Assembly: GCA_035084275.1 (NCBI GenBank)
Contig: CM068751.1
Location: 8,990,001-9,054,000, forward strand
Direction: 5' to 3'
DNA: 64,000 bases
DNA from: Hydrolagus colliei
Lineage: Eukaryota
The notes beneath the pieces were generated by a model that did not search any database, was not told where the DNA came from, and was given only the letters and a program-made list of their open reading frames with translations. The translations under genes were made by a program, and so were the position numbers. This document shows positions 4,646 through 63,850 of this stretch, one piece after another (position 1 is the first letter of the stretch; each line of letters begins with the position of its first letter).

Positions 4646-4972
4646 AAAGGAAAGCGGAGAGGAAGGGTCGGGGCGAGAGAGATGGGGGTGAGAAGAGAGG
4701 ATGGTGGGAGGGAGAAGGGAGAGAAGGGGTGGGAGAGGGGGGGAATCGAAGATAGAGAGGGAGGCAAGTGGAGAAGCGAGGGGGAAAGAGGGAGAGGGGA
4801 AGAGAGAGAGGGGAGAAGAGAAATGGAGAAGAGATGGAAGGAGAGAAGAGAGGAAGGGGAGAAAAGAGGGGAGGGGGAGACAGAGCGAGACAAACGAGAG
4901 GGAGGAGAGAAGGGAGGGAAGAGAAGAGAGAGATGGGGAGGAAGAGGAGAAGGTGGGTGGGAGAGGAGCAAA
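4646..4972 (+). repeat. Polypurine (GA-rich) low-complexity tract in KPNA4 intron 1
   Basis: About 330 bp almost entirely G/A on the + strand. Confidence 0.9.
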
Positions 4973-5310
4973 CGGGACATTTTGGTTGAACTTTTAAACG
5001 CTTCTGGGCCCGAGGTGGAAGGGGGGGGCTCCTACTTCACGCCTTTCCCTATAGCTCCTGGTGAAATCTAGGCCTCACAGTTAGTCAGTCAGTGCCTCTC
5101 TCTCTCTCTCCTTCCTCGAGCCGGCCACTCGGGTTTACTTTGACGTCTCCCAGAGAGAAAGAAAGCAGAGAAAAAGAGAGATGGGTCAGGAGCTGTTGGG
5201 GCGGCGGCATCGACATGGCGGCCAAAGCCGGGAGGGGGGGGCGCGGGAAAACAATGCCGCCTTTGCCGCTGTCGCCCTTGTTGTTGTTGTAGCCGCTACC
5301 ATTTGCTCAC

Positions 5311-5379
5311 CTCCAGATCCCGCCCTTTGTTCTTGAAATTCTTCAGCCTCTGGTTCTCCAGCTTGTCGTTCTCCGCCAT
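5311..5379 (-). CDS. KPNA4: KPNA4 coding exon 1
   Basis: ATG at 5379 in context CAACATGG; encodes MAENDKLENQRLKNFKNKGRDLE (69 nt), then a gtgagc donor; phase 0 joins exon 2. Confidence 0.96.
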
Positions 5380-5780
5380 GTTGGCGCCGCTCGGGGACGA
5401 GGCGAGGTGGGGCGGACTTGTCTTGTCTTCCCTACCCTCTGCCCCTCACCCCCTTTAGGCCTCTTGTGTCGTCGTCGTTCACCTCCCTCGATATTTTTTT
5501 TTGAGGACGAACCGGGTTCCCTCCCTCCCTCCCTCCTCTCTTTTCCTCTGTCTCACTCCAGCACCGCACTTCTCCTCACACTTGGCTTCTACTTGTGTAT
5601 TTTTTAAAAAAAAACACCTCCCTCACGGCTTGGGCCAAAATGCCGGTAAAAAAAACCGCTTTAGCCTCGCTCTCGCCACAACTGAGAGGGGTGTTGGGGC
5701 GGGGGAGGGGCAGGGAGGAGGGAGCGGGAGACAGATTGCAGGAGGAGCCTGGGTTGCCCCACGTTCCAGTAAGCTGCGCG

Positions 5781-6060
5781 ACTATTGGTCAGCCTCTCCC
5801 GGCTGTCGGGCGCCCATTGGTCAGCGATTCCTAGTTGCCGGGCGCCCATTGGTCATCAACTCCAGATTGCCCATTGGCCAGCATCTCCCGATTGCCTGGT
5901 ACCCATTGGCCATCGTCTCCAGATTGCCTGCCTCCCATTGGTCAGCGGCTCTCGGCTGAACCGGCTTCCCATTGATCAACGTTTCCCGGTTGCCGTTCGT
6001 CCATTGGCCAGCGTCTCCCGGCTGCCTCGCGTCACGCGCTATCGCGGCTTCTGATTGGCA
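5781..6060 (-). repeat. Degenerate ~32-bp tandem array, one CCAAT box per unit
   Basis: ATTGG at 5784, 5816, 5848, 5873, 5905, 5937, 5971 (ATTGA variant), 6003 and 6054; unit consensus ~CCCATTGGTCAGCGTCTCCCGGTTGCCGGGCG. Confidence 0.9.
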
Positions 6061-6195
6061 GAGACTGGGTTTCCTCCCCCACCACCGGGCCGGTGCCGCC
6101 GCCTTCTGTCTCTCTCCTTCTCGAGCTCCTTAGCAACCGCCTCGGGCGCCATCTTTGGAACTAGAAGCGTCGGTTTGGGCGGCGCCGGCTGTTGT

Positions 6196-6579
6196 TGTTA
6201 TTCTAATGACAATCCTCCTCTTCCCATTTGATAATCGCGTCTTCCAGACGTCTGAAAGCGCTTGACCGAATATACCGGAAAGTGAATTGACGTGCGTGTG
6301 TGTGTGTTTTTGTGGGCGAAAGGCGGCAGCCGATCGCGCAGTGGCGTCTCCCCCCCCCCCCCCCCCCCCCGGCAAGCAGCCATTGAGATTGAAGTGACCA
6401 AATCACTATTCTTATTTGTTTTATGGTTTCGTGAGGGTAAGGAGGTTTCTCCCTGTCCTGACCAGCAGGGAATCGAACCCAGCTCTCTCTATCTCTGTCA
6501 GTCTCACTCTTATAACTCGCTTGTTTGATTGCTTGCCAGGGAGTGAGTGCACTTATCGCTGAGCCAAGTGAGTCTCCAC
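6196..6579 (-). mobile_element. SINE copy at the edge of the CpG island, CpG-rich, with poly-C and head insertions
   Basis: Family tail and body; B-box at ~6468-6480 and A-box at ~6555-6566. Confidence 0.75.
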
Positions 6580-6696
6580 GACACTGTGAGGTGTAGTGAC
6601 TGTGTGTATTTCGCTCAGCGGCCACCAGCCCCGGGATTGAGCGGCCAGATTGTTGTGATTGTAAAAAATATATATTTTTTGGAAGGGATTCTGGAA

Positions 6697-7150
6697 AATT
6701 ACATTGAGAGAGCGCCTTTCACATTGGGAGGGCGTCCCAAGGCGCTGAACACTCCGAGCGGGGGACAGGGGGAGGGAGAGAGAGTTGGGAGGGCGGCAGA
6801 AGTGGAGGGTCTCGAGACCGGCCTTGAAGGAGGCAATGGAGGAAGCGAGGCGAAGGGTCTGTGGGATGGAGTTCCAGAGTGGGGGGGGGGGGGGGTGCAG
6901 AGAGGCTGAAAGCCCGTCCGCGGATGGTAAGGTGGGTCGGGCGCGGGACATGGAGCAGACTTGAGCCTGCTGAACGGAGGGGGCGGGCAGGTCAGAGAGA
7001 TAGGAGGGGGCAAGGTCGTGAATGGCCTTAAGAGGGAAGACGAGGATCTTAAATTGGATCCTCTGGGGGATGGGGAGCCAATGGAGCCGGGTGAGGGTGG
7101 CAGTGATGTGGTTGCGGAGCTTGGTGCGCGAGAGGACACGAGCTGCGGAG
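6697..7150 (-). mobile_element. L2 LINE 3' fragment
   Basis: NSAARVLSRTKLRNHIT...LHWLP...FKILV plus the L2 tail. Confidence 0.9.
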
Positions 7151-7438
7151 TTTTTATGAGTGGAAGAGTTTGGGAAGGCCAACGAGGAGGAAGTTTCCGT
7201 ACTCAAAACACTTGAGCTACAGGACTGGCACCATGTTACAAAAAGCAAAATCAAATATAAACAGTCATCAGTAATACAGAAGTAAATCAGTGTTAAATCA
7301 AGTCTCGGCTCATGGATTCCAAGCAACATTCTCACCCAGAATGAACAGGAATATCCTTTTTTAAAAAAAAATTGGTAAAAGAACAACAAATTACATTTGT
7401 ACAGCGCAAATTTCACATCAAGAGGACATCCTATTATT

Positions 7439-11343: not shown

Positions 11344-11934
11344 TCACAACCTGTGTTCTTCGAAACCAGGCTGTATGCCTTCGTTTTTATAATTCACTTT
11401 TCTCTTGACGTGTGAAATGATGGTCTTCAAAGCCACGGACAGCCCTTGGCCTGTTTTGGCACAGCACGGCTGTACGTACCAGTCTCTATCCGAGCAGCAT
11501 CTCTTCAAACGCAAACATCTGGTCACTTCCTCTGCGGTCATGGCATTGGGGAGATCCTGTTTGTTGGCGAGAACCACCACCGGGACTCCCTTCAGATGCT
11601 CGTGTTTCAGCAGGCGCTCAAATTCCTTCTTGGACTCTTCCAAGTGCACCTTGTCAGCACTGTCCACAACGTACACAATCCCGTCCGTGTCCTGGAAGTA
11701 ATTGGGCCAAAACTGCCGCAGTTTGCTCTGCCCTCCCACGTCCCAGACGGTGAGAGAGATCTGTTTATCGCCCTCCAACATCTCCACGTTGAAGCCTATG
11801 GTGGGCACAGTGAAACATTCAGTCTCACTGAACTTCAGTTTGTGCAACAGAGTGGATTTCCCCGCTGCGTTCAGACCCAGCATTATTACTCGAGCTTGCT
11901 TCCTTTTCGATTCCTTGGAGGTTAACAAACCCAT
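11344..11934 (-). CDS. ARL14: ADP-ribosylation factor-like protein 14, single coding exon, 196 aa
   Basis: MGxxxS myristoylation motif, G1 GLNAAGKST, G2 PTIGFNVE, G3 WDVGGQ, G4 NKQD and the ARL14-type CSDRDWYVQPCCA; located between KPNA4 and PPM1L. Confidence 0.93.
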   Translation of the reverse strand: MGLLTSKESKRKQARVIMLGLNAAGKSTLLHKLKFSETECFTVPTIGFNVEMLEGDKQISLTVWDVGGQSKLRQFWPNYFQDTDGIVYVVDSADKVHLEESKKEFERLLKHEHLKGVPVVVLANKQDLPNAMTAEEVTRCLRLKRCCSDRDWYVQPCCAKTGQGLSVALKTIISHVKRKVNYKNEGIQPGFEEHRL

Positions 11935-21719: not shown

Positions 21720-22688
21720 TAACAACAACAACAACAAATTACACTTATAAAGCGCCTTTCACGTCGGGAGGATGTCCCAAGGCGCTGCACAGGAGGCGTG
21801 TGACCCGAGCTGGGAGGGGAGTGTACGGGAAGGGGTGAAACACGAAGGGGAGGTCGAAAAATTTGGGAGGGAACAAAAGTCACGGTCGAAGAGGAAAGTC
21901 TTCAAACCGGCCTTGAAAGAGGAAAGGGAAGAAACGAGACGGAGGGATTGAGGGATGGCATTCCATAGGGTGGGAGCGGAGAAACTGAAGGCCCGGCCTC
22001 CGATGGTGGGGCGGTTCGGGCGGGGGGCTTGGAGCAGGCCAAGTCCTGTTGAACGGAGGGTCCGGGTGGGCGTGTAGGGGGAGAGTAAATCGGTTAAATA
22101 GGGCGGGGCAAGGCCGTGTAAGGCCTTGTAGGTGAGGACGAGGATCTTAAACTCGATCCTCTGGAGGATGGGGAGCCAGTGGAGACGGGCGAGGGTGGGG
22201 GTTATGTGGTCGCGAAGGCGGGTGCGGGATAGTACACGGGCTGCAGAGTTTTGGATGGCCTGCAGCCTGTGAATGGAGGGGCTGGGGAGGCTGACGAGGA
22301 GAGAGTTTCCGTAGTCCAGCCTTGAGGTGATGTATGCATGCACGAGTGTTTCGGCAGCGCGGGGGGTAAGATAGTTGCGGAGCCTGGCAATGTTGCGCAG
22401 GTGGGAGTAAGCGGTGCCGGTCAAGGCGCGGATGTGGGGGAGGAAGGAGAGTTTTTGGTCGAACATGATGCCGAGGTTCCTGACTGGCTTTGTGAGGTGG
22501 AGAGTGCAGCCTTGGATGTTGAGGCTGGCAGCGCCCGATGTGCGGAGGCGCTGGCTTGAGCCAATCAGGAGGGCCTCGGTCTTACTCACGTTCAATTGCA
22601 GGAAGTTTTCCCTCGTCCAGGAATCGATGTCGGACAGACATGCTGTCAGAACATCGACGGTCTGGGGGTTGAGGGATAATAGGTAGAC
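21720..22688 (-). mobile_element. L2 LINE 3' fragment (~970 bp), young
   Basis: Uninterrupted RT thumb and C-terminus (WTRENFLQLNVSKTE...VRNLGIMFD...LHWLP), truncated just after the YADD region. Confidence 0.96.
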
Positions 22689-23413
22689 TCTTGCCTGGGG
22701 AGTGGGCATGAATTTGAACAACACAAAATAAGTATTACATTTTGCAGTATTTATGCAATGATCCAGTTTTCTCAACGGATAATAATAATAATCCTTGCAT
22801 TTGATACCATGATTGCAATACTTACATGTCTCCAAAGCACATCACAGGCAATTCCTGTGCTGTCTGATAAGAGAATGCAATTGTTATTTTGCAGGCTTGT
22901 GTCTGAACTGTGAGCAATGAATGTCTGCCGGGAAAATCCCACATTCCTAGGATATGATGCAAAGGGAAATCTCAATGCCCGCAGCAAGAATTCAGAAGTG
23001 TTGACGAGGAAATATTTGCGTCCGTTCATTTATACAGCTCGGTTTCATTCATTTCCTTTTATTCCAACAATATTGCACCAAGGAAATGTTGTTCTCTCTA
23101 ATTTCATAACTTTATATTTATAACTTTGTATAACTTTATATTCTGTGAGGTGCTTTGAGATGTCTAGAAGACTGTTTGTGGGACGCCGCTGTGTGCAATT
23201 GGCTGCTGCGTTTCACCCATAAATATACAGTCAATTCACTTTACAGTGTGAAGCATGGTAAGATATCTAGAAGATGTAAAAAGCGCTATATCAAATGCAA
23301 GGATTATTATTATTAACTTTAAATTAAACTCAGAAATGATGACTAGAACATAGCATTAATTTTTTTTGCTGTGCTGTACAGTATTTATTTACTGTAGGTA
23401 TTTGTCCTTTCAG

Positions 23414-23650: not shown

Positions 23651-23963
23651 AAGTCCTGTAGCTCAGTGGTTAGAGCACTCGCCTTACAAGCGTGAGAACT
23701 GTGTTCAAATCCAGGCAGGTCAGGGCGAAGTTTCCTTACTCCACACACACGCCTAATAATAATAATCCCTCCAAAAAAACAATGATAATAAATTGGTCAT
23801 TTCAATCCATGACTGTTTGTGGGACACTGCTGTGCTCAATTGGCTGCCGCATTTCGCCCACAAATATAGTCCATTCACTTTACAGTATATTCTGTGAAGC
23901 GCTTTGAGACATCTAGAAGATGTGAAAAACGCCGTATCAAGTGCAAGGATTATTATTATTATT
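23651..23963 (+). mobile_element. SINE copy (rearranged fragment nearby at ~23135-23315)
   Basis: Matches the family consensus. Confidence 0.9.
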
Positions 23964-27266: not shown

Positions 27267-27613
27267 TCACTGGTCTTCAGTCTTGCTGTTGTTTCTGAAT
27301 TTCACCACCATTACAGTTATGTTGTCAGGGCATCCTCTGTAGAAAGACTGCAGGACGATGCTCTTTGCGCCAAAGTGAGGCTCGTCGAGACGCTCTTTGA
27401 TAAACCTCACGGCTTCTTCGTTGCTGAAAGCATCCCACAGGCCATCGGAAGCCAGGATCATGAACTGGGGCTGCAGCTTATCCAGGTCAAAGGACAGGAT
27501 GTCAGGGTCAGATATGACCACGTTGAGGTTCTTGAGAGGGTAATCTCCCAGAGAGCGAGACATTGCCAAGATGCCTTGGACTCGCCAAGAACCGTTGAAA
27601 CTTATGAAACCGC
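27267..27613 (-). CDS. PPM1L: Protein phosphatase 1L (PP2C-epsilon) last coding exon (exon 4)
   Basis: 347 nt, cacag acceptor; encodes GFISFNGSWRVQGILAMSRSLGDYPLK...LASDGLWD...CPDNITVMVVKF..., stop at 27267-27269. Confidence 0.97.
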
Positions 27614-27702
27614 CTGTGAAGAGGAAACACAATAGACATGATTCACGCTTGCCACAAAACGTGAAGACATTCCTTTGTTCTATTCATAGGGCTTAATTCA
27701 CA

Positions 27703-28010
27703 TCGTCCTTGCATTTGGTACAGCACTTTTCACGTCTTCTAGACGTCTCAAAGCGCTTCACGGACTATACTGTAAAGTGAATTGACTGTATATTTGTGGG
27801 TAAAACGTGGCAACCAATTGCGCACAGCAGGGCTCTACAAACAGTCATGGATTGCGTGACCAAATTTTTTAATGGGGTTTTTCTTGAGGGTTTATTATTA
27901 GCCGCGTGGAGTAAGGAAACTTGCCCAAGGTTTGGCCTCAACCTGCGGGGAATTGAACCCAGGTTTCTCGCTTGCAAGGTGAGTGCTCTAACCACTGAGC
28001 TACAGGACTC
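27703..28010 (-). mobile_element. SINE copy
   Basis: Family consensus with the GGGTTCAATTCCC head variant. Confidence 0.9.
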
Positions 28011-58249: not shown

Positions 58250-58540
58250 AATAATAATAATCCTTGCATTTGAAATAGTGCTTTTCACATCTTCTAGATG
58301 TCCCAAAGTGCTTCACAGAATATACTATAAAGTGAATTGACAGTACATTTGTGGGGGAAACGCGGCAGTCAATTGCACACAGCAGTGTCCCAAAAACAAT
58401 CGTGGATTAAAACGACCACATTTTTTTGTGGGATTACGTTTGAAGTAAGGAAACTTGTCCAAGGTTTCACCCTGCCGGGAATTGAACCCAGGTCTCTCGC
58501 TTGGAAGGCGAGTGCTCTAACCACTGAGCTACAGGACTCC
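58250..58540 (-). mobile_element. SINE copy
   Basis: Family consensus with the GGGTTCAATTCCC head variant. Confidence 0.9.
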
Positions 58541-63302: not shown

Positions 63303-63850
63303 AGTAATGATCTTGCATTTGATATAGCGCTTTTCATGCCATCTCGAAATCTCAAAGAGCTTCACAGAGTATACTAAGGAAACTACCAGTATATAAAGTG
63401 AATTGACTGTATATTTGTGGGCGAAACGTGGCAGCCAATTGCGCACAGCAGTGTGGAGTAAGGAAACTTGCCCAAGGTTTCGCCCTGACCTGCCAGGAGC
63501 TCCACAATGGCAGAAGAAATTGTCTAACTTTGTGTCGAGTCCTGTAGCTCAGTGGTTAGAACACCCGCCTTACAAGCGAGAGACCTGGGTTCAATTCCAG
63601 GCAGGGCGAAACCTTGCGCAAGTTTCCTTACACCACATGTCTATTAATAATCACTTCACAAAAAAACCCAATAATAAATTTGTCATTTCAATCCATGGCT
63701 GTTTGTGGGACACTGCTGTGGTTGGCTACTGCGATTTGCCCTCAAATATACAGTCAATTTACTTTACAGTATATTCTGTGAAGGGCTTTGAGACGGCTAG
63801 AAGATGTGAAAAGCTCAATGTCAAATGTAAGGATTATTATTATAATAATA
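63303..63850. mobile_element. Two SINE copies head-to-head (~63303-63505 -, ~63536-63850 +)
   Basis: Family consensus; the left copy is internally deleted. Confidence 0.85.

Follow-up and report, generated by a model that had tools for sequence, protein, structure and literature searches.

NF-Y recognizes CCAAT boxes that fit the 11-bp consensus YRRCCAATSRG, and promoters with phased pairs or triads of such boxes carry two or three of them with unrelated spacers, accompanied by a CHR in G2/M genes. According to Haubrock et al. (PMC4982600), the distance between paired CCAAT boxes peaks at 31 bp and again near 41, 52 and 63 bp. Each NF-Y trimer is reported there to bend DNA by 80 degrees, and two trimers, which require at least 24 bp, take an S shape at 24 bp and a U shape at 31 bp (PMC4982600). 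The cyclin B2 promoter has three CCAAT boxes at a spacing of 33 bp (as cited in PMC9448500 and PMC7470974). NF-Y is also reported to maintain a nucleosome-depleted region and to block upstream starts, and the promoters that depend on it are richer in CCAAT (PMC6624317). The bidirectional Mrps12/Sarsm promoter has four boxes involved in directionality between two genes, and the available text reports no repeat origin for them (PMC1802594). The CBF/NF-Y minisatellite of ABO, 4 × 43 bp at about 3.7–3.9 kb upstream, is polymorphic with one or four copies, and its effect is disputed (PMC7187371). ERV-9/LTR12 elements are retroviral, occur in thousands of dispersed copies and carry GATA and MZF1 sites (PMC11853044; PMC3730095). 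Since ABO and LTR12 already provide tandem CCAAT repeats to which NF-Y binds, an earlier note on the DNA analysed here went too far in proposing its CCAAT array as an undescribed element.

This array lies upstream of KPNA4 in a 64-kb window, the whole stretch of Hydrolagus colliei DNA that was analysed. With a probability of roughly 0.6, it is a minisatellite that was seeded by a CCAAT pair and whose additional boxes have been retained as redundant NF-Y sites of the KPNA4 CpG-island upstream promoter, where they would hold a nucleosome-depleted region open. That the boxes are NF-Y sites at all is probable from their sequence. The coordinates of the features are collected in Table 1.

Table 1. 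Features of the KPNA4 promoter and its flanks (positions in the window)
Feature	Position	Strand	Sequence or remark
KPNA4 (importin alpha-3) coding exon 1	5311..5379	-	MAENDKLENQRLKNFKNKGRDLE, then GTGAG
YY1-like site	5374-5382		AACATGGCG; overlaps KPNA4 start codon
Probable transcription start region (predicted)	5575..5690	-	Inr-like CTCAGT 5681-5686, TATA-like TTTAAAA 5602-5608, dA:dT tracts
GC boxes	5696..5715	+	GGGGCGGGG and two copies with 1 mismatch; between array and probable start region
Box 1 (proximal)	5781..5791	-	TGACCAATAGT; intact core, 3' flank deviant at array edge
Boxes 2-6	5813-23, 5845-55, 5870-80, 5902-12, 5934-44	-	all five perfect TGRCCAATGGG
25-bp unit	5845..5869	-	7-bp deletion
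Box 7	5968..5978	-	TGATCAATGGG; sole unit with broken core
Box 8	6000..6010	-	TGGCCAATGGA
Box 9	6051..6061	-	CTGCCAATCAG (core 6054, TGCCAATCAG); strong CCAAT site, 51 bp from box 8, not in repeat
YY1-like site	6147..6155	-	AAGATGGCG; 5' of array, opens 37-codon ORF
tRNA-type SINE	6232..6490	-	borders promoter; B-box-like GGTTCGATTCCC near 6470
LINE 3' fragment	6695..7204	-	several copies across window

The minisatellite occupies 5781-6031 on the minus strand and consists of eight head-to-tail units of 32, 32, 25, 32, 32, 34, 32 and 32 bp, each composed on the gene strand of a 21-bp spacer and the 11-bp NF-Y-type box TGRCCAATGGG. The units fall within the 10-60 bp of a minisatellite, and their homology extends over the entire unit. 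With box 9 included, all boxes are on the same strand, 405-680 bp 5' of the KPNA4 ATG (5379). ATTGG starts at 5784, 5816, 5848, 5873, 5905, 5937, 6003 and 6054, and ATTGA at 5971; the core-to-core spacings of 32, 32, 25, 32, 32, 34, 32 and 51 bp and the single orientation given in the earlier note were reproduced on recomputation. The count of 8-9 boxes built from a 32-bp repeat holds for the eight in the repeat, while the box at 6054 stands apart from it and that at 5971 reads TCAAT, leaving CCAAT intact in 7/8 units. Similarly, the motif CCATTG(G)(T/C)CA, thought to be nearly invariant, is found as an exact CCATTGG(T/C)CA in 6/8 units. The claimed fit to the NF-Y consensus is borne out, TGRCCAATGGG being exact in five of the eight units and one mismatch away in another two; against YRRCCAATSRG, five of the nine boxes are perfect, three have one mismatch (one of these in the core) and one has two. 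Box 7 is probably weak or dead, judging from its core.

The cluster of cores is not a product of chance, since no more than four same-strand cores per 280 bp turned up in any of 3000 dinucleotide shuffles of 5400-6400, and the window outside the array has at most three. Birth by tandem repetition, as first proposed, is confirmed by TRF (periods 32, 25 and 57 over 5784-6026), by alignment and by a leave-one-out profile of the spacer only. In the last of these, which covered the six full-length (32-bp) units, 6/6 outscored all 127,560 background positions, so that the repeat is recovered independently of anchoring on CCAAT. The profile of the full unit scores 23-42 bits inside the array and less than 9 bits elsewhere. 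The array is thus a true minisatellite, unique within the 64-kb window. Its units share 62-88% identity in pairs, with a longest exact repeat of 17 bp; an ABO-type VNTR, with near-identical units, does not agree with this divergence. The 7-bp deletion of the 25-bp unit could have arisen by slippage from one short GCC repeat to another, and the 34-bp unit has a 2-bp insertion. In the spacer of units 3-5 (5856-5901) there is also a CCAAT-like shadow, CAGGCAATCGG, with one mismatch to the 11-bp consensus and 14-18 bp off the main box; given this shadow, the 32-mer may derive from an older duplication of about 16 bp.

The proposal that the boxes are selectively maintained was examined by comparing them with their own spacers. 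Mismatches to the majority consensus number 1/40 in ATTGG and 36/161 in the spacer (Fisher p 0.0013), and 21/101 in the spacer when CpG columns are removed (p 0.004 versus the core). To account for the shared descent of the units, changes were also placed on trees: over all 10,395 trees there are 34 steps, of which the core takes one (0.2 per column) and the spacer 28 (1.33 per column). The relative rate on the tree is 0.14 for ATTGG (LRT p 0.007) and 0.18 for CCATTGG (p 0.004), which both rank among the slowest windows of the unit, and substitution in the core is about 6-7 times slower than in the spacer, with fixed-window p values of 0.003-0.04. In a neutral simulation from a perfect ancestor, 2.3-2.9 of eight cores are expected to stay intact while seven are observed (P 0.005-0.017), and the five perfect 11-mers have P 0.004-0.02. 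A free-window correction is relevant here, as the array came to notice through its conserved CCAAT. With it, p becomes 0.08-0.28 (uniform rates) or 0.15-0.57 (gamma rates) on the tree, and 0.12-0.66 by column permutation or 0.05-0.73 by random scatter in cruder tests; these values come from 8 units × 32 columns of one haplotype. The CCAAT columns are indeed slower, as had been supposed, but the significance of the difference is gone after post-hoc correction, and selection is graded as likely, not proven, because the free-window p is 0.05-0.7. Two observations tip the moderate evidence toward selection on the boxes: a motif defined independently of the array falls in the slowest windows, and no change recurs within the box except A/G at a position that NF-Y tolerates. 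Invariant spacer columns (6/21) are at about chance level for 1.33 changes per column, and a second conserved motif in the spacer is unneeded.

The array had been described as helically phased, which is true within triads only. With 10.5 bp/turn, boxes 1-3 have phases of 0, 17 and 34 degrees, boxes 4-6 of 171, 189 and 206 degrees, boxes 7 and 8 of 291 and 309 degrees, and box 9 of 257 degrees. The resultant length R reaches 0.92-1.0 inside triads 1-3 and 4-6 and is 0.20-0.40 for the nine boxes, a value at odds with an arrangement of all boxes on a single helix face. The two triads are about 140-170 degrees apart, on opposite faces, divided by the 25-bp unit. Five spacings of 32 bp, plus those of 25, 34 and 51 bp, lie on or near the published 31-bp and 52-bp peaks and the 24-bp minimum, which the 25-bp spacing exceeds by 1 bp. 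In a toy model with a kink of 80 degrees per box, an unbroken 8 × 32 array clashes with itself at 10.6-10.67 bp/turn (3.4 and 0.2 nm), not at 10.4-10.5, whereas the real array is free of clashes throughout (6.5-11.8 nm); the model serves as an illustration, not as evidence.

Exon 1 of KPNA4 was identified by its match to importin alpha-3 (PDB 5tbk, E 1.8e-7), the sole PDB sequence match, and Pfam IBB, at a score under its curated cut-off, matches a later KPNA4 exon at 974-1063. The location of the array in a CpG-rich KPNA4 promoter, noticed earlier, is sustained by a CpG o/e of 0.91 within the array and by the adjoining matches to the GC-box motif. These GC boxes and the Inr-like site suggest that transcription starts about 100-200 bp below box 1. 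Three dA:dT tracts (5493-5502, 5602-5617 and 5648-5657), which would also disfavour nucleosomes, fall within what are probably the 5' UTR and the start region, and a long GA-rich low-complexity tract with purine/pyrimidine skew occupies 4690-4960 in KPNA4 intron 1. An RFX5 X1-like motif, CCTTAGCAAC, is present on the plus strand near 6128, between box 9 and the SINE; together with the distal YY1-like motif it makes an upstream or divergent start at 6120-6155 possible. Ten sense-strand ATGs are found in the array, seven of them within boxes, opening uORFs of 11-62 codons, so that a transcript starting above the array should translate KPNA4 poorly. There is no sense-strand ATG in 5380-5783, a depletion that is not significant (P 0.2-0.29).

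The earlier note had seen, in most units, a motif resembling an RFX half-site. G(G/A)TTGCC is exact in 4/8 units, but the true half-site of the RFX consensus, GTTRCC, occurs in only two of the eight (5834 and 5989), within the reported NF-Y footprint. One near-full RFX site with a single mismatch is present at 5834-5846, +6 to +18 from the first C, and falls within the +17 zone reported as an NF-YB contact (PMC4982600). An RFX/NF-Y composite of the X-Y box type, in which an X-box would stand in most units and outside the NF-Y footprint, is therefore not supported. Exact TTTGAA is absent from both strands of 5300-6300, a negative CHR test on which a G2/M promoter of the cyclin B2/CDC25C type was rejected; E2F-like sites in the same interval were found only with a mismatch, and a scan for ERSE gave weak or no support. 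A coding or structured-RNA role of the array was likewise rejected: neither of its two frames (8 queries) matches a Pfam family, Rfam over the window has nothing in the array and only 10 tRNA-like matches elsewhere, and the folding z-score is -0.04. Translated frames of the array yielded no usable homologue that might point to orthologous arrays: a protein search with the plus-strand frame gave 0/5 candidates at E<=0.1, and that with the minus-strand frame gave one 2266-aa repetitive match (27% identity over 24 stretches), which is evidence for neither side.

Upstream of the array, TEs start about 170 bp past box 9. The tail of the SINE (6232-6353) has 0.112 CpG per base versus 0.047 in 21 other copies in the window, about 2.4 times as much, suggesting that it is inside a germline-unmethylated domain; the CpG-preserving domain thus runs past the array. 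Divergence is JC 0.20 between the SINE and its 21 relatives in the window, where matches with fewer than 70 aligned columns were dropped and local alignment biases JC low, and JC 0.48 between array spacers, so that the array probably predates the SINE. Four tRNA calls by ARAGORN (23652-23723, 27938-28009, 58467-58538 and 63539-63608) and the 10 Rfam tRNA matches are probably for the most part heads of tRNA-derived SINEs, the one at 58467 being best preserved (64 bits). Two LINE 3' fragments, 1854-2521 and 21759-22841, are closely similar and have open frames of 217 and 360 codons, suggesting a fairly young family. The single-exon ARL14 gene (11344-11934, minus strand) is 90% identical to that of Callorhinchus milii, while no shark or ray sequence exceeds 72% in the 120 of 256 matches that were listed. 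A PP2C-family last exon at 27267-27683 (minus strand) is presumably that of PPM1L. KPNA4, ARL14 and this exon are all on the minus strand, and ARL14 points at the KPNA4 promoter, its end lying about 5 kb above the array. We take the human neighbourhood to be KPNA4-ARL14-PPM1L with ARL14 and PPM1L pointing away from KPNA4, in which case the all-minus order here would imply local inversions. The spacers have diverged from their consensus by JC 0.24-0.27. If a rough SINE-based rate for C. milii is applied (1.0-1.1e-3 per site per Myr; PMC5499810), the array is perhaps 220-265 Myr old, although mutation and conversion in repeats may run at rates of their own; an alternative C. milii rate is six times slower (PMC5499810), and the holocephalan split is put at 421 Ma (PMC3692497).

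The sequence of events that we favour would begin with a same-strand CCAAT pair 32 bp apart, the arrangement in which NF-Y sites of vertebrate promoters occur most often. Such a pair supplies a direct repeat of 11 bp, on which slippage or unequal crossover would then have amplified the 32-bp unit to eight copies. The 32-bp period was presumably inherited from the seed pair and needs no later selection, and the probability that a random 32-mer holds the 11-bp consensus is 5e-4. The copies have since drifted to their present identity and gained the 7-bp deletion and the 2-bp insertion, the box apparently changing some 6-7 times more slowly than the spacer and varying freely only at the tolerated A/G position, for which the statistical support is moderate. 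Several NF-Y trimers might occupy neighbouring boxes, each triad taking a U shape and the 25-bp junction between them an S shape, with two further boxes on the distal side. A stretch of about 280 bp would thereby stay depleted of nucleosomes, co-activators would be drawn to the GC boxes and Inr, and upstream initiation would be suppressed, while redundancy among the boxes would give steady housekeeping expression rather than a dosage dial. Exclusion of nucleosomes by the array is plausible by analogy with known NF-Y promoters. A link between KPNA4 and NF-Y was not found in the open-licence literature, from which subscription papers are missing, and Kpna has no match in four text supplements of PMC6624317.

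The same array might have expanded neutrally, with NF-Y using the proximal two or three boxes, the others being passengers, and the conservation reflecting chance, ascertainment or patchy gene conversion from the longest identical stretch. The post-hoc p values are not significant, one core is broken, origin from a seed pair accounts for period and motif without selection, and the longest exact repeats (17, 14 and 12 bp) are centred on boxes, as conversion predicts too; the disputed effect of the ABO NF-Y minisatellite (PMC7187371) points in the same direction. However, the perfect boxes are interior ones (2-6) and not merely proximal, seven of eight cores are intact where 2.3-2.9 are expected, and the variable box position is the one that NF-Y tolerates, so that neutral expansion is considered unlikely, if far from negligible. 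It is improbable that the array is the relic of an LTR U3 with LTR12-like CCAAT repeats co-opted as the KPNA4 promoter. The U3 of LTR12 carries 5-17 repeats of about 41 nt in which CCAAT is conserved (PMC11853044), and 40% of the NF-Y sites of K562 cells lie in LTRs (PMC3730095), but the array has no second copy in 64 kb (a weak test at that size), 5380-6231 has no interspersed-repeat match except one of 37 bp, and AATAAA/ATTAAA is absent from 5300-6300.

The earlier note had further imagined a copy-number rheostat of importin-alpha dosage, in the manner of an active VNTR, or a shield against the SINE and LINE upstream, and both are very improbable. ABO alleles do vary in the number of 43-bp NF-Y units (PMC7187371), and TEs do begin close behind box 9, but units of 62-88% identity with no exact repeat beyond 17 bp are too diverged for easy slippage, the array is probably older than the SINE (JC 0.48 versus 0.20), and the CpG-rich zone extends over the SINE (0.112 versus 0.047), so that the array is not the edge of the island. 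Nothing found here supports an effect on importin dosage. It is equally hard to believe that the main TSS is farther upstream, close to the YY1-like site at 6155, and that the array is a stack of uORFs in the 5' UTR, with the AUGs of CCAATGG damping translation. Such a role would suit the ten sense ATGs in the array and their absence from 5380-5783, the upstream position of the YY1-like motif and the translated uORFs that upstream starts yield at NF-Y promoters (PMC6624317). Ten uORFs of 11-62 codons would almost silence an essential gene, however. The conserved block also extends beyond ATG in line with the NF-Y consensus, there are GC boxes and an Inr-like site on the downstream side of the array, and the lack of ATGs in 5380-5783 is not statistically significant (P 0.2).

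A bolder version of the favoured reading would join all of these elements: a self-amplified NF-Y-pair promoter with box-specific selection over about 250 Myr across holocephalans, occupied by seven or eight NF-Y trimers at once as a scaffold replacing nucleosomes, in which the 25-bp unit is kept to flip the bend and to prevent the coil from closing on itself and the ATGs of CCAATGG are a translational fail-safe against upstream starts. Dyad-seeded arrays might then be a general, overlooked route to homotypic clusters, readable in slowly evolving chondrichthyan genomes. This whole is speculative and rather unlikely to hold in all its parts. If selection on the boxes holds across species, the array would be a natural record of a homotypic cluster arising by tandem duplication, its spacers preserving the duplication history and every unit carrying its own neutral control. 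It would also offer a natural template for asking how many NF-Y trimers cooperate, and for 32- versus 25-bp geometry beyond pairs and triads.

No description of a CCAAT array of KPNA4 or of a chimaera, or of a frozen 32-bp housekeeping version of such a repeat, was found in the open-licence literature (subscription papers are missing from it), and the KPNA4 array reveals no new element class or factor. Like the ABO minisatellite, it lies upstream of a gene as a cellular tandem repeat, each unit having a single CCAAT and a length of nearly whole helical turns (PMC7187371); unlike it, the KPNA4 array is in the proximal promoter, has eight strongly diverged 32-bp copies with signs of constraint on the box, and is a putative NF-Y target. 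With the U3 of ERV-9/LTR12 it shares a long same-strand CCAAT array made by tandem duplication, with CCAAT conserved and, probably in the case of KPNA4, located upstream of the TSS (PMC11853044; PMC3730095), whereas the KPNA4 array is single-copy within the window and shows no sign of an LTR there. The same-orientation spacing of 32 bp and the GC boxes nearby are as in the phased CCAAT pairs and triads of vertebrates, which triads 1-3 and 4-6 resemble (PMC4982600), but there are eight or nine boxes here, the spacers are homologous, and 5300-6300 has no TTTGAA CHR. As in the Mrps12/Sarsm promoter, a same-strand array of several boxes stands in a housekeeping promoter, and the boxes are partly redundant there (PMC1802594), although no divergent gene is seen at KPNA4. 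Taken together, the sequence suggests that through plain duplication the KPNA4 promoter acquired functional activator sites in a series of unusual length.
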